A stretch of DNA of 25,337 nt from positions 1 to 25,337 of IMG/VR virus record IMGVR_UViG_2698536560_000009. One strand, written 5' to 3'. The notes below the pieces were generated by a model. It ran no database searches. It saw nothing but the letters and a program-made list of their open reading frames with translations, and was not told where the DNA came from. Position 1 is the first letter of the stretch; every line of letters begins with the position of its first letter. Source of the stretch: a virus. Taxonomy: Duplodnaviria > Heunggongvirae > Uroviricota > Caudoviricetes. Below are positions 325 to 25,337 of this stretch, piece by piece. A program made the translations under genes and the position numbers.

Positions 325-325
325 G

Positions 326-1359: not shown

Positions 1360-1360
1360 A

Positions 1361-1915: not shown

Positions 1916-1931
1916 ATATTTTCCTTATAAA

Positions 1932-1949
1932 GCCCACATGAATGTGGGC
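1932..1949 (-). terminator. intergenic hairpin downstream of the tape measure gene
   Basis: gcccaca / tgtgggc 7-bp stem with a 4-nt loop, between the tape measure stop and the next ATG. On the minus strand it is followed by UUUAUAAGGAAAA. It may be a partial terminator or an mRNA-stabilising hairpin. Confidence 0.25.
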
Positions 1950-1962
1950 ATACTGTATTTAC

Positions 1963-4224: not shown

Positions 4225-4225
4225 A

Positions 4226-4869: not shown

Positions 4870-4901
4870 GTGTATTTTTTCCTTATTATGATTATTTTAT
4901 A

Positions 4902-5378
4902 TTATGGTTTTGCTGCAATTTCACCAACTGCTACAGGTTCGCCCGTGATTGTCATAACAAATTCACGTGTTGCTACAGCGTCAAAATCGCCACCGACAAC
5001 ATCAGAACTAATATAGCCATTAACTATCGAGTAATAACCCACTCCATCGGTATCAGCGATGTTTTCGTAATAAGTTACTTTTACCTGCATAAGCGTCTGT
5101 TTTTGAGCTGCGGTAACTAACATCTCTTGACCTACTGCCCCTGGTTTCCAGTTCACCGATAGGGTTAGATCTGGCACAGAACGAGATCCTAAAAGCTTCT
5201 GTGCGTACTGCTTACCAAATGTATTTACTGAGATAATTGTAGACTCAGCACCTGCTGCTGCCGGGAAAGCTGCAACTTCTTCAATTACTGTAAAAGTGGT
5301 TGCCTGACCACCACCTGCTGGTGCTTCTGCAATTTCTACTACAACGTTATTCGCTGCGAAAATTCGATTAAAAGCCAT
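4902..5378 (-). CDS. major tail tube protein (lambda gpV-like N-domain)
   Basis: 158 aa, immediately upstream of the chaperone genes. The pattern LTLSVNWKPG...NGY...GDFDAV..REFV resembles the gpV tube domain and is shared with the N-terminus of the 560-aa protein at 8288-9970. Confidence 0.55.
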   Translation of the reverse strand: MAFNRIFAANNVVVEIAEAPAGGGQATTFTVIEEVAAFPAAAGAESTIISVNTFGKQYAQKLLGSRSVPDLTLSVNWKPGAVGQEMLVTAAQKQTLMQVKVTYYENIADTDGVGYYSIVNGYISSDVVGGDFDAVATREFVMTITGEPVAVGEIAAKP

Positions 5379-5399
5379 TTTAATTTCCTTATTTAATTA

Positions 5400-5435
5400 G
5401 GGTAACGTCCTGTTACCCGTTTCCTTTTTTTATTT
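5400..5435 (+). terminator. hairpin plus T-run, oriented antisense to the late operon
   Basis: gggtaac-gtcct-gttaccc stem-loop (5400-5418) followed by gtttcctttttttattt on the plus strand. It lies between the 964-aa gene and the tail tube gene. Confidence 0.3.
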
Positions 5436-8324
5436 ATGAAGATTGTAGTAATGCACATATAGCCCCAATCCGCGTAAAAGTTCACCCGAATAGAAACCAA
5501 AGAACATACTATTGTTTTCGGCAGTTGTTTCATTACCTGTTCTGATTGACGCAGGCCATGTACCATTCATTACATGATTTGGTGAAATAACTGCATAGTT
5601 AAGTTGTATTTCATCAAATAGTAATTGAATTAGCTCATGATCTGGATATCCGGCGATAGCCATCATACATGCCCCTGCTAACCATAGACCGGACATATGA
5701 GGGGTAAAGCCATCATATTCTACAGAACCATTATCCCTAAAATAGGTAGGAGCTTTACCGCCATTATTTTTCATGAACCATTTTAGATAGTTCATCCAGT
5801 TCTGGCAGAAAGATATTAGTTTAGGAGGTATTACAGTACTGTCTTGTCGTGACCATAATTCATGTACTGCATCACACCCACCAAAGAAAGCCCTTGGTTC
5901 GTATCCACTCCATGCTTCGGCGTACCAGTGCTGCATTATGAATTGATCTGGCTTACCATCAGGGGCATATGCTAAAGCGTCCTGTCTGTTCCATACGAAA
6001 GCCTGTGCACATGGTCCTGGTAATGATGGTTTAAATTTATTTGTAAACCATGCCTGAGAATCATATAGAAAATTGATACTGTTATTTAAGCGAGTATGAT
6101 CTATTTCTGTTCCTTTAAAGCACCAGATCGCCGGTAGTTGATAACCCGGATACGGTAGACCACGCCACCCAGAATATAACTGGGCATAGGGATCGGTAAT
6201 GTTAGAGAACGGAATTAAACCCGGAGTATACGCAAGACTATCTAGCATATAATCCTTAATAGTACAGTCACCTAAACGGGCTGTGTAACCATTACCAGTT
6301 GTGTCGTTAAACGTAAGCAGTACTGTGACCGAATAATCACCTGTCCCACCATCTGTATACATCGCAGGCAAATCATTAATACAATACCAGTCAATCTTCC
6401 CATTCACACCATTTACTGGATCTGCATCAAGTAGCAGTGTGAAAGATTCACGGTTCGTTAGTACTGGGCTTGCGGGAATAGGATCAGGTTGAATCCATTC
6501 TCCTGGGTTATCTGGATCTTCAATTTCGGGGTGATCGGGTTGATAACCGTTTAGTTTGAAGTCAGCAATAGTAAAAGTCTTTGTAACCCATTCACCATTT
6601 GTTGCAGGGAGCATAGCCCACCAACGCCATTTATTATCATCACTTATACGAAAGTTAAAATCATCATCATATGAACGATAGGTAAAAGATTGAATATTGG
6701 CAGTCTCTGGTGTGAATATCCAAAACCCCACCACCTGTCCCCCGTCACCATCCATTGTTGTAGACACGACGTTATCGTAATAATTTCCAAGTACTCCACT
6801 CTGATATTCAAAGTTTGTTACCGTGTTATCTCCATAATCGGCGATCATACGTAGATCAGCAGTCATATAATTAGAGCCATCTGGTTTCATTACACGTGTA
6901 AAACGATTCATAGGAATGTCCATTGTAGTGATAGAGCCATCTGGATTAGTCATTGGTAGACCACACCGATAATCAATTGCACCTTCTTCTGTTTTTGTTT
7001 TATTCACTGTGACTTCAGCAGAAACTGACATTGCAGTACTGGTATTATCAACACCACCATATTCAATATGAAACTTTGAGTTATTATTGAATTTAAACCA
7101 GATTGATTGTTGTTCTAACATCGTCTGTGCGGATGCACTTTGATTTATTACAATATAACCCTGTGCATCACGGGAATATGATGCTACTTGCTCACTTGGG
7201 TAGAAGTAGTCGTATGAAATACCATCAGTAAAAGGTGTTACGGCAATAGTAGATTTACGAAAGAACATATCGTACTTGTCAATATCTGAATATCCATAAC
7301 AGGTTAATAGTGCACATTGCCACGCAAGATAATACTGGCGTTCTCCTGTAATATCCCAAAGTAGCTTGGCTGCCTGACAAAACCATAATTCGGCATCTGA
7401 TGCATTATCAGAGAAGTCCAAAGAACCATAGTTATCAATCGGTACGTGTACAGGTCGGTTATGCCAGCGTTCATTACGCTTGAACATATACCCGCCATGT
7501 TCTACAGGGTTTCGGGTTGCATAGTTAAAACGATATTCACCAGTAATGGTTTTATTCTTTAACTGTACTGTACCTTCCTGACCAGTTAGACCGGATTGCA
7601 GTACAGTGCCGTTTGAGTCTACCTTACGTCCGGTACGATCAATGATCCATTCGACGTCATAGGTTGGTGCTTTAGTGTCCCAGTCTATTGAGTCTTCATT
7701 GGCAAGCCACAGATAAGCAGTTGCGTTAACCTGATTCCAGCCAAGTCCCGCACGCTTAGGGAAGGCAAACCATACTGCATCGAGGTATTCACCCCAGTGT
7801 GGTGCACCATGTGGGATCTTTGTAAGGCCATTAGCCCATGTGAATAGTGTCCCTTTAAAACCGCCATGCGTCGGATATTCTGGATCTAATGGGTAGTGTG
7901 CCAGTACTGGAGCCTTCCCATTACAAATCCAATTACAGCGTAGTGATGAACTCGGTGGATCTGGAAATGGTGCACCACGATAGAACGCCTTGTGATATGC
8001 GTTAAAGTACTCTTTTGCCTTCTGTAGATAGAAAGGGTCTTTAGTTGCCTGATACACATATATTGCCCCCAGAATCTGGAGGCTTTGACCTTCTGTAGTT
8101 GCATCACCTTCCGGCTGTGCCTCCCATCCAGTTTCTGCAATAAAGTGACGGTTGTTTGCAAGTACATTATCTGGGTTTAATACATAGTGCTGTGTCTTAT
8201 TATTTGTTGTAAGGCCAGTATTACGTGCCAAGAACTTAAACTGACCTTCGATCATTTGATATGCATTATCTATATTGTGTGGTTTCATTATTTCATATCT
8301 GCCATTAGTAGAGAGCCGTACCAA
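5430..8324 (-). CDS. large virion-associated protein, possible carbohydrate-active/receptor-binding enzyme
   Basis: 964 aa (952 aa if ATG at 8286-8288 is used instead of the TTG at 8322-8324, which has a GGGGG Shine-Dalgarno). Very rich in W/Y/F with Gly-aromatic motifs such as GFTPHMSGLWLAGACMMAIAGYPDHE and FFGFYSGELLRGLGLY, which suggest a glycosidase-like fold. The functional call is inference only. Confidence 0.3.
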   Translation of the reverse strand: MVRLSTNGRYEIMKPHNIDNAYQMIEGQFKFLARNTGLTTNNKTQHYVLNPDNVLANNRHFIAETGWEAQPEGDATTEGQSLQILGAIYVYQATKDPFYLQKAKEYFNAYHKAFYRGAPFPDPPSSSLRCNWICNGKAPVLAHYPLDPEYPTHGGFKGTLFTWANGLTKIPHGAPHWGEYLDAVWFAFPKRAGLGWNQVNATAYLWLANEDSIDWDTKAPTYDVEWIIDRTGRKVDSNGTVLQSGLTGQEGTVQLKNKTITGEYRFNYATRNPVEHGGYMFKRNERWHNRPVHVPIDNYGSLDFSDNASDAELWFCQAAKLLWDITGERQYYLAWQCALLTCYGYSDIDKYDMFFRKSTIAVTPFTDGISYDYFYPSEQVASYSRDAQGYIVINQSASAQTMLEQQSIWFKFNNNSKFHIEYGGVDNTSTAMSVSAEVTVNKTKTEEGAIDYRCGLPMTNPDGSITTMDIPMNRFTRVMKPDGSNYMTADLRMIADYGDNTVTNFEYQSGVLGNYYDNVVSTTMDGDGGQVVGFWIFTPETANIQSFTYRSYDDDFNFRISDDNKWRWWAMLPATNGEWVTKTFTIADFKLNGYQPDHPEIEDPDNPGEWIQPDPIPASPVLTNRESFTLLLDADPVNGVNGKIDWYCINDLPAMYTDGGTGDYSVTVLLTFNDTTGNGYTARLGDCTIKDYMLDSLAYTPGLIPFSNITDPYAQLYSGWRGLPYPGYQLPAIWCFKGTEIDHTRLNNSINFLYDSQAWFTNKFKPSLPGPCAQAFVWNRQDALAYAPDGKPDQFIMQHWYAEAWSGYEPRAFFGGCDAVHELWSRQDSTVIPPKLISFCQNWMNYLKWFMKNNGGKAPTYFRDNGSVEYDGFTPHMSGLWLAGACMMAIAGYPDHELIQLLFDEIQLNYAVISPNHVMNGTWPASIRTGNETTAENNSMFFGFYSGELLRGLGLYVHYYNLHK

Positions 8325-9970
8325 GTACTACCCCCGTCTACTGTGACAAACTGAAATACATCAGTAGAATCTTTTGTAAAGGTTAATACTGGAACACGCC
8401 CATAAGACCATAAAATGTTTGTAGGCCAGGATATTTTATTTGCCCCTGTACCCTGCTTAATAAGCACCTGAAATGTTTGACTCTTTTTGTCATTACCACT
8501 TGCATTTAGTACAGAGAAGTTTGACGTTGGTTGTGATAGAGTCACGGTGAATGTAGTTTTACTATCACTCAAATCTATTTCTAATGAATTATTTACAAGG
8601 GTATTTAGTTTAAGAATATCATCTACAATTGTTACCTTCGTATCAATATCTTCCTTCAGAACCTTGTCTTTGTCATCGATCTGTTTCTTTGAATATGTTC
8701 CTACATCATCAAAATTCAGTACTATATTACTGTTAAGAGCATACCCGTTAATAGTGGTGATACGTAGTGCAAATAGATCATTTGACTGGGTACGTGAGTA
8801 CACATCAGGAATATCAGCAGCAACTAATTGAATGTTAGTTCCTGATAATGGCTTATTGTTGATTAAGTATGTTTTTGGTACATATGTGTTATTAGTAAAA
8901 ACAATACTTGCCATATCTGGGAGTTGTGCGGCTGTCAGTGTTATATTCTGGGAAAGACTTAAACCGTTAACAGTAGTTGTTTTTTTAACAAATGAAGTAT
9001 CAACCTGAGTCTGTGAATACACATCAAGAATATCTGCGGCAACTAAGTTTAATGCCGTACCGGATAGTGCATGACCGTTTAACTGGAATACTTTTGGGAC
9101 TACGTTCTGATCTATATACGTCTTACTGTATACATCAGCGATATCAGAAGCCAGTAGTGTAATATTAGCAGTTAGTGGTTTGCTATTGATAGTACGGGTA
9201 ATCGGTACGTAGTCTGCAAGGGATGCACTTGATGCAGCACCCAGTTCTGTCAGTGTAGGTTTATCAGCACTGGTATAGACCTTGTACCATGCCCCCATAG
9301 ATGCACCATAGTTACGCACGTTAATTATTGGCGTACCTGTCTTACTGATAACCAATTGTGTACCAAAGTTCGAATCAAGGTTATTAATACCGAGTACATC
9401 TGTCCCTGTTGGTGAACCTGCACCAGGGATCTTAATAAAAGCATTACCGTCACGCCCCTGATAACTTGGAAACTCAATACCGTTTGCACCTACGCCCCAG
9501 TCTCCGCGATTTAGAGGGACTATCGTACTGTCAAGAATACCCGAAGAAAGTTGTTCGTTTGGGGTGAATACGTAGGAACGGGAAGTAACAGAATCATAAT
9601 CACCACTGGTGGATACAGAAGCCAGATAACCATTATAAAGTGCATAGTTAACCGTAAGGTCATTCTGTCCTTCATCGGGGATCTCTACCTTCATTTGTAC
9701 TAATTGGCGACTTTTTACGATGTCATCAAGAAACTTATGTTTAGCAGGAACCCAGTTAACCGTAATAGTGACATCACCATATGTGCTATCACCTGCTACT
9801 TTTTCGATGTATTCAGAGTCATATGTTTCAATAGCAAGGGTTGCAGTACTGTGACCGAATGAAGGGAACCCGCTTAATTCTGGTACTTCTTTAAATCCCT
9901 TCGATTTGGGGTCACTGTTTAATGTGTCGGTGTTAATCCATACACTTGTGTTGTTAGTAATAAAAGCCAT
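8288..9970 (-). CDS. tail protein with gpV-like tube N-domain and C-terminal tail-fibre-type repeats
   Basis: The first ~140 aa align by eye with the 158-aa tube protein (VNW.P, NGY, GDYD.V..R.YVFT). This is followed by about five ~37-aa repeats of the form (I/V)N(S/G)KPLSG.NI.L.AADI.DVYS.T, resembling the phage tail fibre repeat seen in side tail fibres. Confidence 0.5.
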   Translation of the reverse strand: MAFITNNTSVWINTDTLNSDPKSKGFKEVPELSGFPSFGHSTATLAIETYDSEYIEKVAGDSTYGDVTITVNWVPAKHKFLDDIVKSRQLVQMKVEIPDEGQNDLTVNYALYNGYLASVSTSGDYDSVTSRSYVFTPNEQLSSGILDSTIVPLNRGDWGVGANGIEFPSYQGRDGNAFIKIPGAGSPTGTDVLGINNLDSNFGTQLVISKTGTPIINVRNYGASMGAWYKVYTSADKPTLTELGAASSASLADYVPITRTINSKPLTANITLLASDIADVYSKTYIDQNVVPKVFQLNGHALSGTALNLVAADILDVYSQTQVDTSFVKKTTTVNGLSLSQNITLTAAQLPDMASIVFTNNTYVPKTYLINNKPLSGTNIQLVAADIPDVYSRTQSNDLFALRITTINGYALNSNIVLNFDDVGTYSKKQIDDKDKVLKEDIDTKVTIVDDILKLNTLVNNSLEIDLSDSKTTFTVTLSQPTSNFSVLNASGNDKKSQTFQVLIKQGTGANKISWPTNILWSYGRVPVLTFTKDSTDVFQFVTVDGGSTWYGSLLMADMK

Positions 9971-9973
9971 AAA

Positions 9974-10410
9974 TTATTCCCCATAGCTAAAAGATATAGT
10001 TTGTGTATGCACATACATCGTATTAGTTGCTTCGGCCTGGGTAGTCATTAAGCTCTCTTCCAGAACAACATTGAAAACATCCATTGGAAGTAGTTTGTTC
10101 AATTCATTAATAAAACCACTTGCATAGATTGCATCAATCACTTTACTAATTTCATCTGATGCAAGTTTATAATTTTCGCCTACTGCTACAAAGTCCACTC
10201 TAAATTCACAGAGATAATTAATCCCACGTGGTATTAATTGACCATTAATTAATGTATTTGCTTTTTGAATGCGTGAACGTGTTACAGTACTGTCACCGAT
10301 GTATAACATTGGTTTGTCGTCTACCGTTGCTCTCGATTGATATTGAAGATTTACCAAAGTACTGAGATTATTAATCAAAAATTTCCGTATTGTGTAGTCT
10401 GAAGTTCGCA

Positions 10411-10411
<1 letters not shown>
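9974..10411 (-). CDS. putative neck / tail completion protein
   Basis: 145 aa ORF between the capsid gene and the tail genes, with TAATG start/stop overlap to the upstream gene. Assigned by position only. Confidence 0.3.
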
Positions 10412-12554
<2,143 letters not shown>

Positions 12555-13998
12555 GGGTTAGTACTGGTGAATAGCCCATCTCAGAAATTATTTGTTCTTT
12601 ACTCTTTAATCCATTTTCCATTGCGAGAATCTCAGTCTGTAAATCTTTCAGTGGGTCTAGACTAATATGACGTTGTGGAATGAAATTACATTCAGTTAGT
12701 TCAGTAAATTTACTAAATGGCAAATCCTTCAACATCGGGTTATTTAGCATTTCATTCTTGAGCCACTTAATATACAAAGGTTGAAGTACTGACTTAACCA
12801 GGTTGTTTTGTTTTGCAAGAAATGTATTTTGCTGAATTTTGTCTGTTAACTTCGAGGCACTGAATGATGCCCCTGCGGTCGAACCTGTTAACGTCTGTGG
12901 TGTAAGATCGAGTGACATCCCTATGAAAATCAACTGGTTATCTAGAAATTCCTGTAGTGCGTCGAATGTTTGTGATGGACTGAGTGACTTCACATCTTGA
13001 CCCTCACGAAGTTCTAACAGTACTCCACCCTCCATACGTGCAACCTGGTATTCATCTACATCAGAATCGTCATCATCATCAATATCTTCAAATGATGCAT
13101 CACGTGACGCATTCGTGATAAAACCCATGCTTTCCGCTGCTAATTGTCGCGTCTTGATTGACGCCCTCATGAATTTATCCAGGTCTGCCAGTAGTCCAGT
13201 ACCGCAAAATATATCGGGAATGCCGCGTTGCTGTTCTGGATAGTCAGTACTGAATAAGTGAAGGATCTCTTCTGCGGGTACACGTTCTGCTTCAGTACTA
13301 ACTGAGTACGATACGGGGTCATATTGTGTTAGAAAGTAAGCAACGGGTTTACCAGTGCCTTTTTCAAACTCAATACCATTTGAACGATAGTTACCATTAC
13401 TTAGCCATTGATTACCTTTCGTATCAATTACAGTACTGTCTAGTACTTCAATCTTCATACCAGGATGGATACGAATAAAACAACTACCATCAATTGAACG
13501 TGTCTTCTCTACCAGTGACTGGAATTTGGACATTTCAAGTTTTCCATTTAGGGAAAAACGTGCGGGGTCTTCACACCATGAGTAGAACGCATCGGCGAGA
13601 CGTTTATTAATATCATTATTAACATTGTCATCTTCAGCAACGTGAACACATGGACGATACGTAATACCATTTGCACCACATACACTACTGGCATTCTGTG
13701 CAATATACTTCTTATGAATTGGGTTACTCATACTAAGCTGGCGACTTTGTAGTACTGCCGTGTTCAATACACGGTTAATTACGGCATTGATCGAGCCACT
13801 CTTACCAACTGCACCAAATGTACCAAGTTGTGCGGCTGCGTTACCGTTACCGATGGAAGAAATGGAACGTTTGGTTTCAATACCTAAATTACCAAGTACT
13901 GGTTCAGTACGTATTTTTGCCTTACCAATATATAGTTTTGGTTCTTCTTTTGGCTGTTCCTTTGCCTTTCTAAAATTAAAATTAAACATATTCCCCTC

Positions 13999-14475
13999 TT
14001 ATCTTGTAAAACGTGTAATTGATTTGATGGGGTTGCCCGTCTTAACTTTTCGTACACGTGCCTTTTCATCTGCAAGTTTCTTTGCATATACTTGTCGCAT
14101 ACGGTAAAGTACTTCAGCACTTTCTGTTACTAGTGTTTTATTATTAATGGTAAGTTGTGTAGTACCACCCCCAAGAATCTTGGATTCAATAACCATATCA
14201 ATTTCATCGATCAATTCCTGTAACTGATTTATTTTATTTGCTGCTTCAAGTGGATCTTTAACAGTGAAAAGTTGTACAGACATACTACCATCGCTAATAA
14301 TTGCAGTACTGACACCAGCTACCCATTGAGATGTATCAATGGGTAAATTTGGAAAGTATTCTTGCTCATTACCTTTTGCATCAATGATTTTAATCGTTGC
14401 TGTTGATGGGAAGTCTAGTACTATAGTTTCACCAATAAAGATCGGGCTAGTTAAGTCCGTCTTACGTGGATTCAT
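13999..14475 (-). CDS. hypothetical head protein (gpW position between terminase and portal)
   Basis: 158 aa ORF with ATG at 14473-14475, lying between the large terminase and portal genes. No motif recognised. Confidence 0.35.
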   Translation of the reverse strand: MNPRKTDLTSPIFIGETIVLDFPSTATIKIIDAKGNEQEYFPNLPIDTSQWVAGVSTAIISDGSMSVQLFTVKDPLEAANKINQLQELIDEIDMVIESKILGGGTTQLTINNKTLVTESAEVLYRMRQVYAKKLADEKARVRKVKTGNPIKSITRFTR

Positions 14476-14487
14476 ATTAATTCCTTA

Positions 14488-16407
14488 TTAAAACCAGTTA
14501 CGATTATTAAGTGCTGAAAGTCCTTTTTTCTTAGGTTTTGATTTCTGCTTCTCTTTCTGTACTGGTTGTTGTTCTGCTTTAGTTTTTATGGATTCTTCTA
14601 CTTTAGTATTTAGTTCTTTTTGTTTAGCTCTATACTCTCGCAACTTCCTATACGGTTGTGCACCAAGTGCCTGTATCTTGTGATCAATCGCTGCTAATGA
14701 GTAGACGAGCGTATCGAGACATTCGTTACGCTCTCCATTTGGATTCTCCCATACCATCACTGAACCTTTTCGTACTAGTTTTTCTGCTGTAAGTTGGAGG
14801 AAGTAATCATCGACAAGGGAATGACTGAAGTGTATATTAGTACTATACTCTCCCCCTTCACATGCCTGTCGTAATAACTTCTTAACCTGGTGCTTCAGTA
14901 CTTGAGTATTAATATTAACCAGTTGATGTCCTGCCGTTGTGGAATCCTTCGTGATGGGACCAGTCTGTGTGTTTGCACCCTTAATTGCATGCCATCGTCC
15001 CCCACTGGAAGAACAAAAGCGATATATGGAACTGGTTGCAGATCCGTTTGAGCTATCAATAAAGGATCTCAGTACTGGTACTTTTCTACCTGAAGTGGTT
15101 TTAAATATACTCTTACTATAATTAAGTAGTTCAGTATATGCCTTATCTTCATACTTAGTACAATCGACACCATAAAACATACGGTGGTCCAGAACCCATA
15201 TATTCTTTTCATCAAATGCAATAGTACTACATTCTAAGCGGTCTATCTGTTGGTCACATGCCAGTACAATACCAAGTGCATTATCTGGAATATGTTTTAC
15301 ATCTAAATCAAAGTCGCGTAAGTTTTCCAGTACTGTAAGATCTTCTTTAATATTATTCTTATCTACCCACGGTAAACCGAGTACGTTATTATAGAAAGAT
15401 TGTTCTTCAAAGTTTATCCATGAGTTCTTAAAGTCTTCAACAATCTTCTCAATAGTAGTAATCGGTGAATATAGTCTATTAACATGGTATCCCCTGAAAC
15501 CCATCACATGCAGTCTGTGTGCTTTCCAGTAACCTTTTGCAACCATCCGTGCACGTTGCCCTTCAGTGATTACTTCATCACATCCTGGACAGTGTAGGCG
15601 TGCTGTAGTGGGTTCTGGTGCATTACGTCGTTCGTTGAACTTCACCCATTCAAACTTTATATTCTCCCATTCTAAAATATGGTCATGATCACAATGTGGA
15701 CACACGACATGAAAATGTCTCTGGTCTGAGAGTTCCCATTGCTGGCAGATCATATCGTCCTGTACTAATGGTGTGGAGGCCATCACGATCAGGGAGTTCT
15801 TACCAAACTGAGTTGCACGCTGTTCTATGAGTGATAGGGGGTTGCCCTCATCTTGTTCTGGATCTACACCTGATAATTCATCAATGAAGATTGCAGGAAC
15901 TGTAAGCGAGCGTAGGGACTGGCTAGAATTGAGGTTAACAAAGTATGTCTTAGTACCGTCAACGTTCTGTTGAGTGTGTAGATCGTTTACTGCATTCTTA
16001 TCTGATTTGTCAGTGATTAATGCTTGAAGGTTTGGACACGCATTAATAGTATCCATCCATTTACCAGTACGGAACTTTTTCACAGTACTACCACTACTAC
16101 CCGCAAATATCATATGGGAGGGTTTATTTGCCATCCTGTAAAGCATTGCATTTTGTAGTATTGTTGTCTTGAGTAATTGTGCACTACTCATTAAACAGAT
16201 CTTCTGTACTGATGGATCTACTGTGGCGTTTAGGGGTTCTACTTGAAATGAAAATAATTTAGTTTTTTGTTGTGCCAGTGGTCCATCTGGAAATACAGTA
16301 TATTGTTCACACCATTCAGATGGTTTAATCTTCGGTGGGGGTAATATTGATTTCAGACTCTGGTTCAGAATCTTCATCATCTTCTTCTGGCTGTTCTTCG
16401 TACTCAT
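14488..16407 (-). CDS. terminase large subunit (lambda gpA-like)
   Basis: 639 aa. Contains Cys/His clusters (CPHCDHDH, HCPGCDE) and an acidic IFIDELSG segment typical of gpA-family terminases. Follows a Nu1-like small subunit gene. Confidence 0.8.
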   Translation of the reverse strand: MSTKNSQKKMMKILNQSLKSILPPPKIKPSEWCEQYTVFPDGPLAQQKTKLFSFQVEPLNATVDPSVQKICLMSSAQLLKTTILQNAMLYRMANKPSHMIFAGSSGSTVKKFRTGKWMDTINACPNLQALITDKSDKNAVNDLHTQQNVDGTKTYFVNLNSSQSLRSLTVPAIFIDELSGVDPEQDEGNPLSLIEQRATQFGKNSLIVMASTPLVQDDMICQQWELSDQRHFHVVCPHCDHDHILEWENIKFEWVKFNERRNAPEPTTARLHCPGCDEVITEGQRARMVAKGYWKAHRLHVMGFRGYHVNRLYSPITTIEKIVEDFKNSWINFEEQSFYNNVLGLPWVDKNNIKEDLTVLENLRDFDLDVKHIPDNALGIVLACDQQIDRLECSTIAFDEKNIWVLDHRMFYGVDCTKYEDKAYTELLNYSKSIFKTTSGRKVPVLRSFIDSSNGSATSSIYRFCSSSGGRWHAIKGANTQTGPITKDSTTAGHQLVNINTQVLKHQVKKLLRQACEGGEYSTNIHFSHSLVDDYFLQLTAEKLVRKGSVMVWENPNGERNECLDTLVYSLAAIDHKIQALGAQPYRKLREYRAKQKELNTKVEESIKTKAEQQPVQKEKQKSKPKKKGLSALNNRNWF

Positions 16408-16846
16408 ATGATCCTAATTCCCTTAGTTTCTCATCAATCCTTTCTTCTAGTTTTATCCGCAATGTATCCGCATCTTCACTTTCAAATAGTTCTACATAGA
16501 TAGATGCCGGAATACTTCTTAGTACTCCGCGTAGTGCTGCAAAATAACCAGTTAGTGTTTGAGTTACATAATCAGTACTCAATACCTTTTCAGTACTGAT
16601 ATTTAATTCAATCTCAACTAAATCTGCTTCAAGTGATATCTTGCGTAATTTCTCTTTTTCAATCTGTTCTTTTACATCAGTATTTCGCAATGGTTGGATA
16701 ATATTAATTAGTATCCATTGATCTATTTCTTTTTTACTTGCTTTCTTTGGGTGTGGCATTCCACGTTTTGCCCATTCACGGCTTACAGTACTGTCATTAA
16801 CTCCCATACGTTCTGCAATTTCGTTTGTTGTATATCTATCGTTCAA
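16325..16846 (-). CDS. terminase small subunit (lambda Nu1-like, N-terminal HTH)
   Basis: The N-terminal TNEIAERMGVNDSTVSREWAKRGMP resembles the Nu1 winged-HTH (…IRTIQNWQEQGMP), and the C-terminus is acidic. The start codon at 16844-16846 is TTG; the first in-frame ATG would truncate the HTH. Confidence 0.6.
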   Translation of the reverse strand: MNDRYTTNEIAERMGVNDSTVSREWAKRGMPHPKKASKKEIDQWILINIIQPLRNTDVKEQIEKEKLRKISLEADLVEIELNISTEKVLSTDYVTQTLTGYFAALRGVLRSIPASIYVELFESEDADTLRIKLEERIDEKLRELGSYEYEEQPEEDDEDSEPESEINITPTED

Positions 16847-16981: not shown

Positions 16982-17010
16982 GTTAGGGAATCGGATTTGT
17001 TGGAGTGTTT

Positions 17011-17514
17011 ATGAATCAGAAGCTCATCCAAACAGTCATTTCTGAGTGTCATCGTATAGAAGAGGACGCTCTTTACTCTTCTAAATCTCATTATAATGTT
17101 TCTGATAGATGGGATAAGCTGAATCTGTGGTTCGGTGTACCATTAGCAATCTTAACCGCTTTGAGTGGTATTGCCGCAATCAAGAGTACAGCCAATGCTG
17201 TTGTAGCTATTTCCATAACTGCTACAATTCTAACTGCATTAAATACGTCTCTTAACCCAAGTAAGCGTGCTGCACTTCATAAATCAGCAGCAAATGAATA
17301 TAATAAATTAAAGAATGAAGTTAGAATATTTAGGGAAATATTGACTTCTAATTTTGATTTTACTGATAAAACTTTGATTGAAAAACTTACGAGTTACTCT
17401 GATCGACGCAATCAACTTAATTCAAGTTCGCCAAATATTCCTCGGTGGGCTTATGAGAAAACTCAAAGAGATGTTAACCAAGGCTTTACTAAGTATAATA
17501 TTGACAAGGAATAA
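17011..17514 (+). CDS. SLATT-like two-transmembrane effector protein
   Basis: 167 aa from the ATG at 17011 (GGAG 6 nt upstream; the ORF track begins at a GTG at 17005). Two adjacent hydrophobic helices (LWFGVPLAILTALSGIAAI and AVVAISITATILTALNTSL) are flanked by short soluble regions. The stop lies 2 nt before the NTase start. The family call rests on architecture and on the SMODS neighbour. Confidence 0.45.
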   Translation: MNQKLIQTVISECHRIEEDALYSSKSHYNVSDRWDKLNLWFGVPLAILTALSGIAAIKSTANAVVAISITATILTALNTSLNPSKRAALHKSAANEYNKLKNEVRIFREILTSNFDFTDKTLIEKLTSYSDRRNQLNSSSPNIPRWAYEKTQRDVNQGFTKYNIDKE

Positions 17515-17516
17515 AC

Positions 17517-18293
17517 ATGACAGTCAGTACCTATCTTGAGTCTATTAAAAGCAATGCTTATCAAAGAGATATTACAATAACGAATTCAATTGCAACCATA
17601 AAAAACAGACTGAATGGTTATTTTGCTGGTGAACTTGTTAGTCATTTTGTATTTGGCTCATATTCACGTAATACAATGCTTCCTCGTAGCTATGATCCTT
17701 CTTCTGATGTTGATTATATGGTTGTATTCAAAAATGTAATATATCAGCCTCAGACCTACCTAAACAAGCTAAGGGGTTTTGTAAATTATTACTATCGTAC
17801 ATCTGAAATAAAGCAAAGCCACCCTACTATTCAATTGAACCTTAATCATATTACTTTCGAGCTTGTCCCTGCATCTCATAATATTTTATTTGGTTATCAA
17901 ATCCCTTCCAACCAGGATTTTTTGAACCGTTGGATGAATACCGATCCCAATGCGTTCAATACTGATTTAACTAATTGCAATAAAAATAATAACAATTTAA
18001 TTAAGCCTCTTATTCGCATAATGAAATATTGGAATGCCAATGCAGGTTATGTCTTTGAGTCGTATCAACTTGAAAAAGATATTGTTAGCTTTAACTATTT
18101 TTGGTGCTCTACCCTTAAAGAATATTTTTACTCTGCTGTAGAACAACTTTCAGGTTCCTATTATCTCGCACAATGGAAAAAAGATAAGATTCAGCGTCTA
18201 AAAAATTCAGTTATGATGTCAAAATATTATGAGCAGTTAAACAATCATTTTGCCGCCGAAAATGAAATAAAGAAAATTTTACCCATAAAATAA
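17517..18293 (+). CDS. SMODS / CD-NTase-like nucleotidyltransferase (Pol-beta superfamily)
   Basis: 258 aa. Carries the GS-x15-DVD signature (FGSYSRNTMLPRSYDPSSDVDYMVVF), a downstream acidic ITFELV, and a LIRIMKYW motif like the OAS/cGAS-type helix. AAGGA Shine-Dalgarno 8 nt upstream. Confidence 0.6.
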   Translation: MTVSTYLESIKSNAYQRDITITNSIATIKNRLNGYFAGELVSHFVFGSYSRNTMLPRSYDPSSDVDYMVVFKNVIYQPQTYLNKLRGFVNYYYRTSEIKQSHPTIQLNLNHITFELVPASHNILFGYQIPSNQDFLNRWMNTDPNAFNTDLTNCNKNNNNLIKPLIRIMKYWNANAGYVFESYQLEKDIVSFNYFWCSTLKEYFYSAVEQLSGSYYLAQWKKDKIQRLKNSVMMSKYYEQLNNHFAAENEIKKILPIK

Positions 18294-18571: not shown

Positions 18572-19246
18572 TCATGATTTAACAGATACTAATGCCAGAA
18601 TAGATGCTACTGCGGCAGCCAACGAAACTATAAGACTTAATGTAGGTATATATAATGCTGTAACTCTTCTAAACTTGTTCTCTTTGTCGTTATACTGAAT
18701 AAAAAACATCTTAATTTTCAGTAAGCGGATTAAAATTAAATCTTTTAATGCGGCCTTGTGTAAAACACCTGTAACACGGTGATAATGAAGTAAATTCTTT
18801 ACTGCTTTCTCTATTTTTTTTGGTGTTATGTGTTTAACGTTATATGAATGATGGACAATCAAGGAATCATGTGTTGCTAATGAATCATCTGAAGTAGACG
18901 GAAAAAGAATTATATGCACAGCCCCCGTCGCACTATATGTAATTGAAAGTGCGGCTCCTTTTTGCCAATGATGATTAAACTTTATGCTTTCGGTAGTTTT
19001 TTCCTGCCGCATATTTCCAGTCATACGATCAGCGATCTGAAATGTCAGGCAATCAAAACCATAACCATCTGGTTCATCTTGCATATCAATTATATTAAAT
19101 CTTATATGCTCTCCTGATAATTGGGTTGATAGTATTTCTAATTGCTTTTTTATTTTAGGTTTGAATATAATCCAGTTTACATTAGAAATTAATCTTCTAA
19201 GTTCGTCTCTTTCAAACTTTGCTCTAAGCTCTTTCTTCCACTCCAT
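18572..19246 (-). CDS. hypothetical tail-anchored membrane protein
   Basis: 224 aa with a GGAG Shine-Dalgarno and ATG at 19244-19246. A soluble His-rich domain is followed by a single C-terminal transmembrane helix (LYIPTLSLIVSLAAAVASILALVSV). Sits alone on the minus strand between hairpins. Confidence 0.5.
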   Translation of the reverse strand: MEWKKELRAKFERDELRRLISNVNWIIFKPKIKKQLEILSTQLSGEHIRFNIIDMQDEPDGYGFDCLTFQIADRMTGNMRQEKTTESIKFNHHWQKGAALSITYSATGAVHIILFPSTSDDSLATHDSLIVHHSYNVKHITPKKIEKAVKNLLHYHRVTGVLHKAALKDLILIRLLKIKMFFIQYNDKENKFRRVTALYIPTLSLIVSLAAAVASILALVSVKS

Positions 19247-19569: not shown

Positions 19570-20373
19570 ATGAAATTTGTCTCTGAAAGAATTGACCATG
19601 TAAAAATAGCTAATGGATATTGTGTAATATGTGGTAATTTTGGCAAATTAAAAAAAGACCATGTTCCCCCGCAATGTGCATCTAAACCTTCACCTATGTT
19701 ACAAAAAACGATTTCTGAGTATTTCTCTAATACTCGAGTACCACCAATTAAAGCAAAAAGCGGGACAACTTTTCGTACCATTTGTCACAATTGTAACTCG
19801 AATATTTTAGGATCAATGGATGCAGAAATAGGCCGTGTTACAACTGAATTCATCGAAAAGTTAAATGATTATTTTAGTGGTAAGTTCTTTTACAAAAATT
19901 ATATTTCATTAAAATTTGATGCGGATAAATTTCTAAGAGCAATGATTGGACACCTTCTGGCTGCAACTTCAGTAAAAGATTGTATGAAGCCTATTGTTGA
20001 TAGTCCTTTTTATACTCCATTGAGAAATTTTGTATTAGGCAGGAATCCAGACATTGGGGCAACTCATAATATTTACTATTGGTTTTATCCATTCAGAAAA
20101 CAAATTACTGCTCAGTCAGTTACATTCTACAATAATGGACATCATAGTATATGTTCTTGCTTACATTTTTTCCCAATATCTTTTTTGGTTACACTGAAGG
20201 AGCAAGGAACATTTCCTATTCATGCAACTGAAATGACTCAATATGATCAATCTCTTCATTTTAATATGACAACGGCTAATATTGATTATGCTTCATTTCC
20301 CTTTGTAGGTTTAAAGAATAATCAATTTATGATGGTAATTTCTGGTCATACTTGTGTTAGTTATCCTAAATGA
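19570..20373 (+). CDS. HNH-motif (His-Me finger) nuclease-like protein with uncharacterised C-terminal domain
   Basis: The N-terminus contains C-x2-C ... DH ... C-x2-C-N (CVICGNFGKLKKDHVPP ... TICHNCNSN). The spacer is longer than in the canonical HNH motif. The C-terminal ~180 aa are unrecognised. Confidence 0.5.
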   Translation: MKFVSERIDHVKIANGYCVICGNFGKLKKDHVPPQCASKPSPMLQKTISEYFSNTRVPPIKAKSGTTFRTICHNCNSNILGSMDAEIGRVTTEFIEKLNDYFSGKFFYKNYISLKFDADKFLRAMIGHLLAATSVKDCMKPIVDSPFYTPLRNFVLGRNPDIGATHNIYYWFYPFRKQITAQSVTFYNNGHHSICSCLHFFPISFLVTLKEQGTFPIHATEMTQYDQSLHFNMTTANIDYASFPFVGLKNNQFMMVISGHTCVSYPK

Positions 20374-20400
20374 TTTTCAACTAAAGGTTGAGAAATATAG

Positions 20401-20445
20401 ACATAAGAACATAAGAACATAAGAACATAAGAACATAAGAACATA
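20401..20445. repeat. tandem octanucleotide repeat (ACATAAGA) x 5.6
   Basis: acataaga x5 then acata, in the intergenic region between the HNH gene stop (20373) and the next gene (20591). Confidence 0.9.
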
Positions 20446-20457
20446 GTCCAACTGTTC

Positions 20458-20519
20458 AGCGACACGTCCCACACACACCAACTAAACAAACCTACCCTTT
20501 ATGAGTGGGGCGTGTCGCT
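20458..20519. repeat. GC-rich inverted repeat with 15-bp arms (one mismatch) and a 32-nt CA-rich spacer
   Basis: agcgacacgtcccac (20458-20472) pairs with gtggggcgtgtcgct (20505-20519); the spacer is acacaccaactaaacaaacctaccctttatga. Confidence 0.8.
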
Positions 20520-20590
20520 AATAGTTTACGCCAGAATGGTTATTATGGTAAAGTTCATTTTTCACTTTGATATATTGGATTTCTAAAAAA

Positions 20591-21142
20591 ATGGAAGCTG
20601 AAACCATTACACAACTCATTGCAGTCGGTGGTACTTTAGGCGGTGCATTAATAGCTGCGGGTGTAACATTGGCAAGCCAATTAATCACTAAAAAATATGA
20701 GAACGAAAAACTAAAAAAACAACTTTTATTCAAAATACTCGAAGATGAATTAAAAGAAAAAAAGCAAACTATTAAACCTTTCATTCAGTTTATTAATTCT
20801 TTGAATCTTCCAGAAAATTTTAATTTTTATGATGATGGTGATCTTTTAGATCAAATTATGCTTTATAAACAGGATTTAATTAAAAGTAAAGCAAGTGACT
20901 TCCTTCTCGATTATACATTATACATGACACCACAAATTCACGATGCGATTTGGACGGTTACTAATGCTATAAATGATTTTGAAGAATTGGGAGCACGGTT
21001 TTATGATTCATCATTGAGTAAACAAGAAAACGATGAAATATTACTTAGAAATTGTAGCGGTAAGCCAACTGAAATTTGGGAAGCTTTGATGAAATTGAAA
21101 GGCTTGCTCTATAGTGAAGTTAACATAGCTGATAAATTATGA
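20591..21142 (+). CDS. hypothetical membrane-anchored coiled-coil protein
   Basis: The ORF track starts at a TTG at 20567; the first ATG is at 20591. An N-terminal transmembrane helix (LIAVGGTLGGALIAAGVTLASQLI) is followed by a K/E-rich helical domain. The stop overlaps the next gene's ATG as ATGA at 21139-21142. Confidence 0.5.
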   Translation: MEAETITQLIAVGGTLGGALIAAGVTLASQLITKKYENEKLKKQLLFKILEDELKEKKQTIKPFIQFINSLNLPENFNFYDDGDLLDQIMLYKQDLIKSKASDFLLDYTLYMTPQIHDAIWTVTNAINDFEELGARFYDSSLSKQENDEILLRNCSGKPTEIWEALMKLKGLLYSEVNIADKL

Positions 21143-21840
21143 ATATAAAAACTATAAACTCTACTCTTGTCGGCATTGTTGCAGTACTTCTGTTTTTAGC
21201 AGTCTTAGTACTCGTTAAGGTTCTATTCGCTGGTAGCAGGGGGTTTGAATGGGGGAACGCAGCTGATTTAACAAGTGCGTTATGCAATATCGTGATTGCG
21301 TCTACAGCTCTTTGTGCTGCTTTTGTAGCAAATAATTGGTTCGTTCAGAATAAAAAATTAAAATCCCTTTCTACCTCACATCAGTTGGCTATGAAATTTG
21401 AGATGCAGTTATGGGAAATAAATTCACGTTTATATAATGATGGTATAGTTCGTGCTTCCATCAGGAAATATGTTCAGGATAATAAAGAACTGACAGATGA
21501 AATAAAATCTAAAGTTGCTGCTGAAATTAATAAAAAGGCCACAAGTGATTTATCTGAACTTGCTAAGCTATATACGACAAGGTCAATGCTAGCCAGGTTT
21601 GATATTAAGTTAAGCGAACGGCTTGAAAATTTATTTAAAAATATATTAGAGTTAAGGCAGTCATATTTAGACAATCAATATATATATCTATTGACCATAT
21701 GCAAACATATTAATTGCCCCAAGCATGAGGACGTAATTGCAGCTACAGAAAATCTTGAAAGTGTTAAAAGAGAGCTAGCTGCCATATTTCAGTACGAGCT
21801 ATGTGAAACAAATATTGATACTGATTATTCGTTCAGCTAA
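21139..21840 (+). CDS. hypothetical 2TM membrane protein (paralog A)
   Basis: 233 aa with an N-terminal hydrophobic hairpin (LVGIVAVLLFLAVLVLVKVLFAGSRGFEWG, then LCNIVIASTALCAAFVANNWF) and a soluble C-terminal domain. The N-terminus is about 35% identical by eye to that of the 22818-23561 protein. Confidence 0.5.
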   Translation: MNIKTINSTLVGIVAVLLFLAVLVLVKVLFAGSRGFEWGNAADLTSALCNIVIASTALCAAFVANNWFVQNKKLKSLSTSHQLAMKFEMQLWEINSRLYNDGIVRASIRKYVQDNKELTDEIKSKVAAEINKKATSDLSELAKLYTTRSMLARFDIKLSERLENLFKNILELRQSYLDNQYIYLLTICKHINCPKHEDVIAATENLESVKRELAAIFQYELCETNIDTDYSFS

Positions 21841-21877
21841 ATTTATAGTTAATTGATGTAAATAAAAAGGAAAGCTT

Positions 21878-22699
21878 ATGCTTGGGGAGTCATTTAATCA
21901 ATTCATGGTAGAGTCTTATTTGTCCAGTACCTCAATAGGTGGTGGGCTTACTGCTGTGCGGAAATGTAGAGCACATGATAAAGGTAGCTTCTATAGCAGC
22001 TTCTTTCAATTATCAATTGGCATAGAAAGGTTTTTTAAGATTATCTTCATACTCAATCATATGATCGAAAATAATCTTGAGAAGCCAGACTTCCGTACAC
22101 TTAAAAAATTCAGCCATAATATTGCGGAGCTTCATAAAAACTGTTCAAGCTATGGTGCTAGCCATTTACCCAATTTGGAGTGGGAATTAAACTGGCAGCA
22201 AAACCTCATATTAGAAATGCTTTCTGAATTCGCTGATGCTTCAAGATATTATAATCTTGATAAAATTGTAAAAGGCAAAAAAGAAGTCAAAGATCCGTTA
22301 GCACAGTGGAACGAAATAATTAATTCTTGCTTCCGTAAACACATTACTGATTCTAGAAAACAAAAACTAGAAAGAGAATTAAATTTATGGGCCGACAAAT
22401 ACAAAGCATACGGTTACACCTGGAATAGAGGTCTTGATGGTGCGATTTTAAGCCAAATTGATGAGTATATACTTTCCTGGAAAGTAATAAACGTTTCACC
22501 TTATATTGTGTTTGAAATCATTGATATGTTGCAGCCTTATTATTATCTAATTTCTAAATTTAAAGATGATATTGACAACATTGAGCACAGTAAAGGGATA
22601 AGAGAACCTCTGGTTCCATATCTCCATGAGATATTTGTATTTCTACTTGTCCATAAGAAGTTAGCTTTGAGTAGAAAAACATGGAGTTTCCGTTATTAA
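21878..22699 (+). CDS. hypothetical soluble protein flanked by the two 2TM paralogs
   Basis: 273 aa with an AAGGA Shine-Dalgarno and ATG at 21878. An R-x4-H (RKCRAH) motif lies near the N-terminus, but no confident family assignment is possible. Confidence 0.45.
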   Translation: MLGESFNQFMVESYLSSTSIGGGLTAVRKCRAHDKGSFYSSFFQLSIGIERFFKIIFILNHMIENNLEKPDFRTLKKFSHNIAELHKNCSSYGASHLPNLEWELNWQQNLILEMLSEFADASRYYNLDKIVKGKKEVKDPLAQWNEIINSCFRKHITDSRKQKLERELNLWADKYKAYGYTWNRGLDGAILSQIDEYILSWKVINVSPYIVFEIIDMLQPYYYLISKFKDDIDNIEHSKGIREPLVPYLHEIFVFLLVHKKLALSRKTWSFRY

Positions 22700-22735
22700 T
22701 TACATGGACATGTATCACATTATTAATCAGAGAGG

Positions 22736-22753
22736 CACTAATCATGATTAGTG
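22736..22753. promoter_or_regulatory. 18-bp perfect palindrome cactaatcatgattagtg, candidate operator upstream of 2TM paralog B
   Basis: Perfect dyad in the 118-bp gap between the genes at 21878-22699 and 22818-23561. Confidence 0.35.
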
Positions 22754-22817
22754 GAATATATATCCATCAATGCTACATATATACATCTATGTCTTTTATT
22801 TAAGAAATGAGATTAAC

Positions 22818-23561
22818 ATGCTTAATATTAAAAAATATAATTTAATACTACTAAGTACCGTACTATTACTGCTGCTAATTGCTATATTAGTTGGTGTAAA
22901 AATATTATTTTCTGGTTCGAAAGGATGGGAGTGGGTAACTTTAATTGGAACATTATGTAGTGCTGTAGGTACATTAGGTACACTATGGGTAGCCTACCAA
23001 GCATACCTAAAAGCACCTGAATGGTTGTCGCAAAAACATTATGATGTAGTATATGGTGTTATTGAGAAAGCAATTTATCAAGATCTTAATAAAGTACGTA
23101 CTTCAACCTTAATTTTAAAACATCAATTAGTGACATTCTCCAAAAAATATCGCAATCATTTAAAAAACGAGACCATACCCCAAGATTCACATGATGAGTT
23201 TATGAAGGAAACAGATGCTCTTGTTTCCGATTTATTCTTCACTTCTTACTCCGTTATTAATTCCTTAAAATCTATTGATAGAACTAATTATGCTTTAAGC
23301 GAATACACAAAAAACATTATTGCTGAACTTAAATTAAATATTGATGAATATAACGGACTGAGTATCGATTTCTATATTGCAAGTTCTGAGGTTCCTGCAC
23401 TTATACAGGCCGATGAATGTGTGAGGGATCAAACTAGTAGTGAGCTTTTCGTTATACAGTCAAAAGCAATTTCACTTCACAATAAGATTTCATCTTTCAT
23501 AAAAGATATATATGATGATAACTATCCAATTGATAACTTCATAACTCTAAAGAAAAAATGA
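22818..23561 (+). CDS. hypothetical 2TM membrane protein (paralog B)
   Basis: The likely start is the ATG at 22818 (MLNIKKYNLILL...); the ORF track begins at 22770. The N-terminal hairpin LILLSTVLLLLLIAILVGVKILFSGSKGWEW matches paralog A (shared VK.LF.GS.G.EW). Confidence 0.5.
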   Translation: MLNIKKYNLILLSTVLLLLLIAILVGVKILFSGSKGWEWVTLIGTLCSAVGTLGTLWVAYQAYLKAPEWLSQKHYDVVYGVIEKAIYQDLNKVRTSTLILKHQLVTFSKKYRNHLKNETIPQDSHDEFMKETDALVSDLFFTSYSVINSLKSIDRTNYALSEYTKNIIAELKLNIDEYNGLSIDFYIASSEVPALIQADECVRDQTSSELFVIQSKAISLHNKISSFIKDIYDDNYPIDNFITLKKK

Positions 23562-24782: not shown

Positions 24783-24794
24783 TCCATTAATGGA
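24783..24794. promoter_or_regulatory. operator-like 12-bp perfect palindrome TCCATTAATGGA (copy 2)
   Basis: Perfect dyad, 41 bp from copy 3. Confidence 0.4.
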
Positions 24795-24823: not shown

Positions 24824-24835
24824 TCCATTAATGGA
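24824..24835. promoter_or_regulatory. operator-like 12-bp perfect palindrome TCCATTAATGGA (copy 3)
   Basis: Perfect dyad, 14 nt from the stop of the 162-aa ORF. Confidence 0.4.
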
Positions 24836-24848
24836 GTTAAAAAATGCT

Positions 24849-25337
24849 TCATTTACCATCAATGAAACCCTGTAGAATAATAATTAGTTCCTCTGCTGAT
24901 GCTCCGCTATCATGTGCGTTTGCTAACGTCTCATAGAACTGTTTGTTGTCTATGTAGTGCATTCCGTCCTTTTGCACTTTGAATAGCTTCACTTTGCGTT
25001 TATGTGCTGCTATAAGAGCTTTTGATACTGCGGTTGCTACACGCCTTACCTTTACTGCGGTAGATTCACTTACACGTTCCTGAACTTCTTTTATATGATA
25101 GTCCTGGTAAAGATGTAACCTGGCTAAAACTTTCTCAGTACTGAATGTGATCAAATTGAAAACGATGTAATAGATCTTAAATCCACTATATGGCTTACCG
25201 TTACCCATTGGGACTGATGCTATTGCTTCATCAATTATCTGTTTTGCTTCTGGTGTAAGATCGTTGTCATAGTCTCCAAAATTCCCCGCAATGCGTAGGA
25301 ATGGTGTATTGTCGTAATCTCGTGCTTTATTTGCCAT
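24849..25337 (-). CDS. hypothetical protein (possible regulator; start coincides with window edge)
   Basis: 162 aa ORF whose ATG is at 25335-25337, exactly at the window end, so the true start could lie beyond the window. Stop at 24849-24851. Followed by a region with three TCCATTAATGGA palindromes. Confidence 0.4.
   Translation of the reverse strand: MANKARDYDNTPFLRIAGNFGDYDNDLTPEAKQIIDEAIASVPMGNGKPYSGFKIYYIVFNLITFSTEKVLARLHLYQDYHIKEVQERVSESTAVKVRRVATAVSKALIAAHKRKVKLFKVQKDGMHYIDNKQFYETLANAHDSGASAEELIIILQGFIDGK

Follow-up and report, generated by a model that had tools for sequence, protein, structure and literature searches.

SieA of phage P22 blocks DNA injection and SieB halts macromolecular synthesis mid-cycle (PMC10883804), while Tha is a single-gene HEPN RNase defence encoded by a Staphylococcus aureus prophage (PMC11087260). 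HEPN-TM, cited in PMC11087260 and PMC12948488, was described by Fillol-Salom et al. 2022 as a two-component defence encoded by phage-inducible chromosomal islands. The locus analysed here is a group of four genes, designated g1, gA, g3 and gB, which lie in the cargo region of a prophage represented by a 25,337-nucleotide stretch of DNA (IMG/VR record IMGVR_UViG_2698536560_000009, positions 1 to 25,337; hereafter, the window). A role of these genes as phage-conflict cargo is plausible, the known kind being prophage-encoded exclusion or abortive-infection (Abi) proteins. The main finding is a new prophage-restricted family of proteins with two transmembrane segments (the 2TM family), represented by gA and gB, which has an unusual conservation pattern, forms arrays of paralogs and is partnered by 8xMP or g1 genes, together with a rare cassette, g3, with a predicted HEPN-like fold.

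An earlier note, made from the sequence of the window, described this interval as four co-directional genes and suggested that they form one membrane-acting superinfection-exclusion or Abi system. The four open reading frames (ORFs) indeed lie on the plus strand, namely, g1 (20591-21142), gA (21139-21840), g3 (21878-22699) and gB (22818-23561), and the same four coding sequences are present in RefSeq for Escherichia coli strains 55989 and N61. The ATGA overlap that the note reported is formed by the stop codon of g1 and the start codon of gA (21139-21142), and g1, a protein of 183 aa, does carry one N-terminal hydrophobic transmembrane (TM) segment; its C-terminal part was labelled there as a putative coiled coil. 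Comparison of the four proteins with Pfam, PADLOC, PHROGs and NCBIfam yielded nothing significant, in agreement with the statement of the note that no structural, lysis or replication family is represented and with its suggestion of a possibly undescribed system, the proteins being undescribed in every library searched.

The paralogy of gA (233 aa) and gB (247 aa), also proposed in the note, is supported by BLASTP, with 42% identity over the first 64 residues (E = 6e-7). The conserved hairpin and divergent C-terminal part attributed to the two proteins are evident as well, but the C-terminal parts are not unrelated, because a hidden Markov model (HMM) built only from relatives of gB matches gA at positions 1-192 (E = 9e-16). 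Thus, the homology of gA and gB runs well past the hairpin, and their C-terminal parts are homologous and very diverged. An exhaustive search with the family profile over 1.84 billion representative proteins (clusters at 50% identity) retrieved 230 clusters at E <= 1e-3, of which 106 reach E <= 1e-10. Most members are 200-270 aa long, and in many the match is limited to the initial 76-97 positions of the profile, which correspond to the hairpin. A Pfam scan of 127 family members found no covering family, save the 8xMP part of protein P0173, and PDB sequence searches with the 2TM profile and with 8xMP gave nothing meaningful. This inner-membrane family, in which gA and gB are two diverged copies, is undescribed and restricted to prophages, where it occupies the cargo slot of one Enterobacterial lineage.

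The mean pairwise identity within the family is 35% in the hairpin (residues 1-75) versus 13.7% in the C-terminal remainder. The near-invariant positions comprise a glycine and an aspartate in the loop, A-x2-A-x3-A in the second TM segment (TM2), and W-x3-K following TM2. The N-terminus contains on average 2.2 lysine and arginine residues versus 0.65 aspartate and glutamate residues, while the corresponding values for the loop are 0.94 and 2.37; the topology predicted from sequence is N-in, loop-out and C-in. In the predicted architecture, a short cytoplasmic N-terminus leads into the hairpin with a periplasmic loop of about 8 residues, and a hypervariable cytoplasmic four-helix bundle continues from TM2. 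The gA protein has this organisation of a conserved hairpin and a variable, putatively cytoplasmic, helical domain.

A scan of viral contigs provided 22 further prophage loci, 13 of which carry two to four paralogs on one strand. The recurrent gene order is the small terminase gene, an EAL gene on the minus strand, c2 (a small, conserved gene on the plus strand), the 2TM array, small minus-strand genes, HNH genes and the recombinase gene. Genes of the 8xMP family (PF24838, 'octameric membrane protein family'), all above the Pfam gathering threshold, abut or overlap the 2TM genes from the upstream side in four loci (L019, L040, L044 and L051), and protein P0173 (478 aa) is a fusion of an N-terminal 8xMP domain (E = 1.2e-24) to a 2TM-family module. 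This adjacency, together with the fusion, argues for a functional link between 8xMP and 2TM proteins; a literature search on the function of 8xMP returned nothing relevant. The window contains no 8xMP gene, and g1 occupies the equivalent upstream coupled position in both E. coli variants: the same 4-nt overlap joins the stop of a g1 homolog (92% identity) in strain FDN-9 to the start of another 2TM paralog. Unlike 8xMP, g1 has a single TM segment, and the two share no similarity. Two candidate relationships of g1 were rejected, namely, that it is a degenerate member of the 2TM family (hhalign probability 1.5%) and that it is homologous to a 174-aa plasmid protein with an N-terminal TM segment (BLASTP E = 90).

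The g3 gene encodes a soluble, all-helical protein of 273 aa, for which structural modelling predicts a HEPN-like helical-bundle fold. It is rare, with only 7 clusters among 5.8 billion proteins, and targeted scans revealed about 20 more loci in Enterobacterales, Pseudomonas, Cellvibrio, Sphingomonas, IncX and other plasmids, and one E. coli phage. The 23 homologs compared, with identities down to 29%, share residues E12, G36, F38, Y39, E50, R51, K54, H80, R123, Y124, P140 and W144. The invariant H80 stands just ahead of the helix 82-96 and is preceded by a basic residue at position -4 (-5 in a Pseudomonas/Sphingomonas subgroup), giving the pattern [RK]-x3/4-H, which is reminiscent of the HEPN motif Rx4-6H, although most members are off the canonical spacing. 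Judged from this alignment, the pattern of conserved residues looks enzyme-like, and a putative active site may be non-canonical. A Foldseek search of g3 against BFVD found nothing.

The g3 gene behaves as an independently mobile cassette. On E. coli plasmids p14EC033c (L011) and pMTY9754_IncX (L012), its homologs (about 48% identity) are located between a resolvase gene and the type I toxin gene dqlB and are preceded by the gene for the 174-aa protein mentioned above; the copy on p14EC033c carries a disruption close to its 5' end. In L016 and L031, the place of the gA-type protein upstream of g3 is taken by an unrelated 246-aa 2TM protein with a hairpin and a C-terminal domain, the ORF of which is split in Pantoea (L029; 109 + 133 aa), and small TM proteins are encoded upstream of g3 in Yersinia and on IncX plasmids. 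In Enterobacter ludwigii (L001), a gene for a DUF4238 protein (2778-3650) lies about 6 kb from the pair formed by gA and g3. DUF4238 proteins have a reported defence function in P2/P4 hotspots, and the presence of this gene is consistent with a defence-island setting.

A conserved four-gene neighbourhood, whose absence the earlier note would count as refuting its proposal, was not found. The cluster is present in 90 of 5426 complete E. coli genomes, in 87 of them at full length, and 88 of the 90 copies are at least 99% identical; they therefore represent one haplotype and not independent evidence. All four genes occur together only in this E. coli block and at no other locus. Strain FDN-9 combines the g1 homolog and its overlapping 2TM paralog with a second 2TM paralog, and has no g3 and no gB. 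Citrobacter prophages carry an OLD-family nuclease gene and homologs of g1 (69%), of u267 (82%), a cargo ORF that precedes g1 in the window and here lies between the g1 and gB homologs, and of gB (65%), without gA and g3. In another Citrobacter prophage an 8xMP gene overlaps a gB homolog (72%), and in other prophages a GTPase gene is accompanied by a gB homolog (40%) and an adjoining further paralog. In Enterobacter ludwigii (L001) and a viral contig (L013), gA orthologs (about 51% identity) are located directly upstream of g3 (77%), and neither g1 nor gB is present. Finally, g3 is found alone in about a dozen contexts and in none of the 22 + 4 other 2TM-family loci, and the g3 genes of L015 and L029 are 97.4% identical while their upstream genes are unrelated. 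At the nucleotide level, the homology of these loci to the window ends at gene boundaries, which is the pattern expected of independent cassettes. Rather than a single system, the interval is a mosaic of three cargo modules that shuffle independently.

The source match of the window, at 100% identity, is a prophage of E. coli strain N61, which appears intact and in which the cluster lies about 3 kb from a serine recombinase gene at the junction with yggS. Positions 1-16846 are occupied by minus-strand head, tail and packaging genes, including the small terminase gene (16325-16846; phrog_57), and the RefSeq annotation shows a gpA-type large terminase, a portal and a capsid gene. The cargo slot is located between the small terminase and serine recombinase genes, in the orientation opposite to the late genes. 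The cargo itself (17.0-23.6 kb) is mostly on the plus strand and has a low GC content of 0.31-0.34; beyond it there are small minus-strand genes, an HNH gene, the serine recombinase gene and the yggS junction. The first cargo module, directly after the small terminase gene and on the opposite strand, is a complete type I cyclic-oligonucleotide-based antiphage signalling system (CBASS; 17005-18293), which consists of a SLATT 2TM effector (17005-17514, plus strand; PADLOC E = 2e-70) and a SMODS/CD-NTase cyclase (17517-18293, plus strand; PADLOC E = 3.5e-113), the cyclase gene starting 3 nt after the SLATT gene. It is followed by u224 (18572-19246, minus strand), an ORF with a C-terminal TM anchor that recurs in L041 and L056, and then by u267 (19570-20373, plus strand), a Cys-rich (CxxC...CxxC) ORF that has a match to phrog_21495 (E = 1e-94) and is found again in L059 in addition to Citrobacter. 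The genes g1, gA, g3 and gB, in this order, complete the cargo. Homologs of each of the four were found in loci without CBASS; the possibility that they are CBASS accessories was rejected, their co-occurrence with the cyclase and effector not being obligate.

The same slot is a hotspot in an Enterobacterales prophage lineage characterised by a GpA-type terminase and a serine recombinase (L019-L026 and L038-L060). Its contents vary by member and comprise CBASS, OLD-family nuclease, GTPase and EAL-domain proteins, HNH endonucleases, 8xMP and 2TM arrays. In strain 55989 (L010, NC_011748.1 4969844-4997089), only a truncated terminase gene, CBASS and the cargo block remain, bordered by the insertion sequences (IS) IS100, IS3 and ISVsa5 and adjoining a Tn10-type tet(B) region. 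This locus is a domesticated prophage remnant that retains the cargo. Neither the cluster nor the structural arm had a megablast match among 50,697 phage records, and tblastn of gB against phage records likewise gave none.

The DNA between u267 and g1 contains a tandem 8-bp repeat (ACATAAGA/CATAAGAA) of about 6 units (20393-20445), the copy number of which varies among E. coli genomes, and their alignments break or shorten there. Further downstream, ahead of g1, there is a plus-strand stem-loop with 18-bp arms and a 26-nt loop (20458-20519; folding free energy -34.1 kcal/mol, z = -7.4) that is not followed by a T-run. A counterpart of the stretch 20468-20554, conserved at 72%, precedes the 8xMP gene in the Citrobacter prophage L019 (5220-5300), and the stem-loop may mark a cassette boundary or act in regulation. 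The perfect palindrome of 18 bp, CACTAATCATGATTAGTG, which the earlier note placed upstream of gB, is present at 22736-22753, at a cassette junction in the spacer between g3 and gB. No longer perfect palindrome exists in the window, but its length is statistically unexceptional: when the window was shuffled 300 times with its composition preserved, 35 of the shuffles held a perfect palindrome of at least 18 bp. The palindrome CACTAATCATGATTAGTG occurs once in the window, even with 3 mismatches allowed, and among the related loci it is absent outside the same E. coli block; its interpretation as a conserved operator was rejected because it is neither conserved nor significant.

A 12-bp palindrome, TCCATTAATGGA, occurs twice in intergenic DNA (24783-24794 and 24824-24835), 41 bp apart and beside the minus-strand gene 24849-25337, and the pair resembles the layout of an operator. 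Palindromes related to it, (T)CCCAGTACTGGG(A), are located at 106-117 and 141-154, and TCCAGTACTGGA at 11134-11145. Rfam and tRNA scans of the window returned nothing.

The explanation we propose, the chances of which we judge to be about even, is that the cargo mosaic consists of modules that act in phage exclusion or abortive infection independently of each other. The first module would be g1 translationally coupled to gA, the second g3, a soluble HEPN-fold protein moving alone between prophages, plasmids and chromosomal islands, and the third gB. The 2TM genes typically stand in arrays of one to four diverged paralogs, with the first copy often coupled to an upstream membrane-protein gene, either g1 or 8xMP. 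The conserved hairpin may be the membrane-acting or oligomerising part, and the variable cytoplasmic bundle the specificity or sensor part that would recognise a phage product; several paralogs would then widen the range of phages recognised. The g3 protein may be a separate HEPN-type, probably RNA-targeting, Abi effector, possibly assisted by gA. For this scheme we infer expression in the lysogen, anti-phage activity, pore formation and RNase activity. Since the variable part is predicted to be cytoplasmic while the periplasmic loop is tiny and conserved, cytoplasmic sensing coupled to a membrane effector, as in Abi, is favoured over a block of DNA entry. As for the membrane-acting exclusion or Abi system put forward in the earlier note, the part that stands is a plausible role as phage-conflict, mostly membrane-associated, non-structural prophage cargo beside CBASS, and the part that falls is the unity of the four genes.

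A more far-reaching version of this proposal, which is speculative and in our view doubtful, would make gA and gB representatives of a new class of immunity proteins in Enterobacterial prophages, in which a modular single chain unites sensor and effector. The hairpin, by itself or together with g1 or 8xMP, would oligomerise to form a membrane lesion, the bundle would recognise different phage proteins and the arrays would serve as a receptor repertoire, while g3 would found a new family of HEPN-like effectors with a non-canonical active site.

Several observations weigh against the proposal of independent anti-phage modules. None of the four proteins matches the PADLOC-DB v2 models, no paper mentions them in a literature search for their accessions, and their adjacency to defence genes in prophage cargo is circumstantial. 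The scan for promoters and terminators performed no better than chance (42 promoters found versus 39.9 expected), so that expression in the lysogen is putative. The near-invariant loop motif G-S-x-S-D-W is lost in the subgroup to which gB belongs. A blocker of DNA entry would be expected to vary in its periplasmic part and the reverse is seen, a pattern that also fits unrelated roles. With regard to g3, most members of the alignment depart from the canonical Rx4-6H motif, the Pfam HEPN families gave no match at E <= 1 for g3, P0006, P0007 or the IncX plasmid homolog, and a search of PDB with the g3 family profile found no HEPN chain; the departure from this motif and the lack of a HEPN profile match make its RNase activity uncertain.

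Other explanations were weighed against the independent modules. A genuine two-gene system of gA and g3, i.e. a membrane protein with a HEPN-fold effector comparable to HEPN-TM and Cas13b-Csx28, with g1 and gB as separate neighbours, is unlikely, even though four diverged lineages have a 2TM-family gene immediately ahead of g3. The gap between the two genes is 37 nt in the window and about 20 nt in L001 and L013, and in L015, where g3 has 47% identity, the upstream protein matches the family HMM at E = 7.7e-8. Elsewhere the upstream position is taken by other membrane-protein genes, encoding the 246-aa 2TM protein (L016 and L031), an 80-aa 2TM protein (L002) or the 174-aa protein with an N-terminal TM segment (IncX plasmids), and defence systems joining HEPN and TM proteins are known (PMC11087260, its reference 12; PMC12948488; for Csx28, bioRxiv 10.1101/2021.11.02.466367). 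However, no membrane-protein gene adjoins g3 at L005-L009, L014, L017, L018, L028, L030, L033-L036 or in phage vB_EcoM-683R1, the nearly identical g3 genes of L015 and L029 have unrelated upstream genes, and the 22 + 4 other 2TM-family loci lack g3 altogether. Small membrane-protein genes are, moreover, common in these cargo regions, so that the adjacency could be a coincidence. A partnership of gA and g3 is possible and is required by neither partner. The model of the earlier note, in which all four genes form one membrane-acting exclusion or Abi system, could appeal to their location on one strand, their close spacing, the overlap of g1 and gA, and the preservation of the whole block in 87 E. 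coli genomes, including the IS-flanked remnant in 55989. These 87 copies, at least 99% identical, are a single haplotype, every sub-combination of the genes is found elsewhere and the full set at no other locus, and the blocks of homology stop at gene boundaries, which renders this model very improbable.

The independent modules also have to be weighed against functions other than defence. The 2TM family and g1 might be lysogenic-conversion or housekeeping membrane proteins involved, for example, in host envelope physiology or signalling, an idea that we consider distinctly unlikely. It would account for the near-constant presence of the family in the prophage lineage, downstream of the conserved EAL gene and c2, and for the lack of matches to defence models, and its conserved hairpin might interact with a host membrane partner that is likewise conserved. 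Rapid C-terminal diversification, paralog arrays and cassette turnover are, however, typical of conflict genes and not of housekeeping functions, and CBASS and an OLD-family nuclease are among the neighbouring cargo. Lysis functions as holins, antiholins or spanins are extremely improbable: the N-in/C-in 2TM topology resembles that of class II holins, and the g3 cassette of L015 and L016 has an endolysin-like gene and genes for small membrane proteins as its neighbours on the opposite strand, but homology to holins or spanins, which the earlier note had named as refuting evidence, was not found in Pfam or PHROGs, nor were matches to other lysis families. In addition, the 2TM proteins are 200-270 aa in length, have a large folded cytoplasmic domain and occur in one to four copies, and the genes are transcribed opposite to the late genes, with no endolysin gene adjacent in the window.

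If the 2TM family has an exclusion or Abi function, it is an unannotated family that has been missed by current defence-finding tools, and its modular layout would make specificity and mechanism testable by domain swaps. The cargo hotspot of the lineage with the GpA-type terminase and serine recombinase differs from the P2 and P4 hotspots already known, and g3 represents a rare family, predicted to be HEPN-like, which also resides on IncX and other plasmids. If these genes are not anti-phage, the locus illustrates that tight same-strand clustering in prophage cargo alone does not define a system.

Comparison with the known systems sets the modules of this locus apart in different ways. Tha is a precedent for a single HEPN protein carried by a prophage (PMC11087260); its canonical RX4H motif is essential for activity, whereas g3 contains only [RK]-x3/4-H with the invariant ER..K and RY, and has no HEPN profile match; the single-gene HEPN Abi proteins ApeA and AbiA-HEPN are grouped with Tha as comparators of g3. 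HEPN-TM and Cas13b-Csx28 are precedents for uniting a HEPN-fold component with a membrane protein (PMC12948488; bioRxiv 10.1101/2021.11.02.466367), as gA and g3 may do, although the adjacency of gA and g3 is not obligatory. SLATT effectors and gA/gB are alike in having a two-TM hairpin with flanking helices and in being membrane-acting, putatively in the case of gA/gB, and a true SLATT effector is encoded 3 kb upstream in the same cargo region. Nevertheless, the assignment of gA and gB as divergent SLATT proteins was rejected, as no SLATT match was found in Pfam or PADLOC. The best SLATT score was 12.7 bits (gB versus NCBIfam SLATT_1, cut-off 41), and hhalign of the 2TM family profile with the SLATT protein of the window gave a probability of 0.3%. 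Unlike SLATT, the 2TM family has no paired nucleotide-synthase gene and is found in prophages without a cyclase or CBASS, and the cyclase gene of the window is already paired with its own SLATT gene.

SieB contains an N-terminal pair of TM segments followed by a cytoplasmic domain, as do gA and gB in their predicted form. SieB of P22 and lambda and SieA of P22 are, like gA and gB, small prophage-encoded inner-membrane proteins in cargo positions; they act against superinfecting phages and are the nearest functional precedents of the role proposed here (PMC10883804). The SieB family of Pfam shows no match to gA or gB at E <= 1 and is not among the best 25 of the 42 families listed for the 127 family members; nor did any other exclusion family come up among the matches listed in Pfam or PHROGs searches of gA, gB or 125 family members. 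In contrast to SieA and SieB, the gA and gB proteins are larger, have a predicted four-helix-bundle tail, belong to a family arranged in paralog arrays and are linked to 8xMP or g1 genes.

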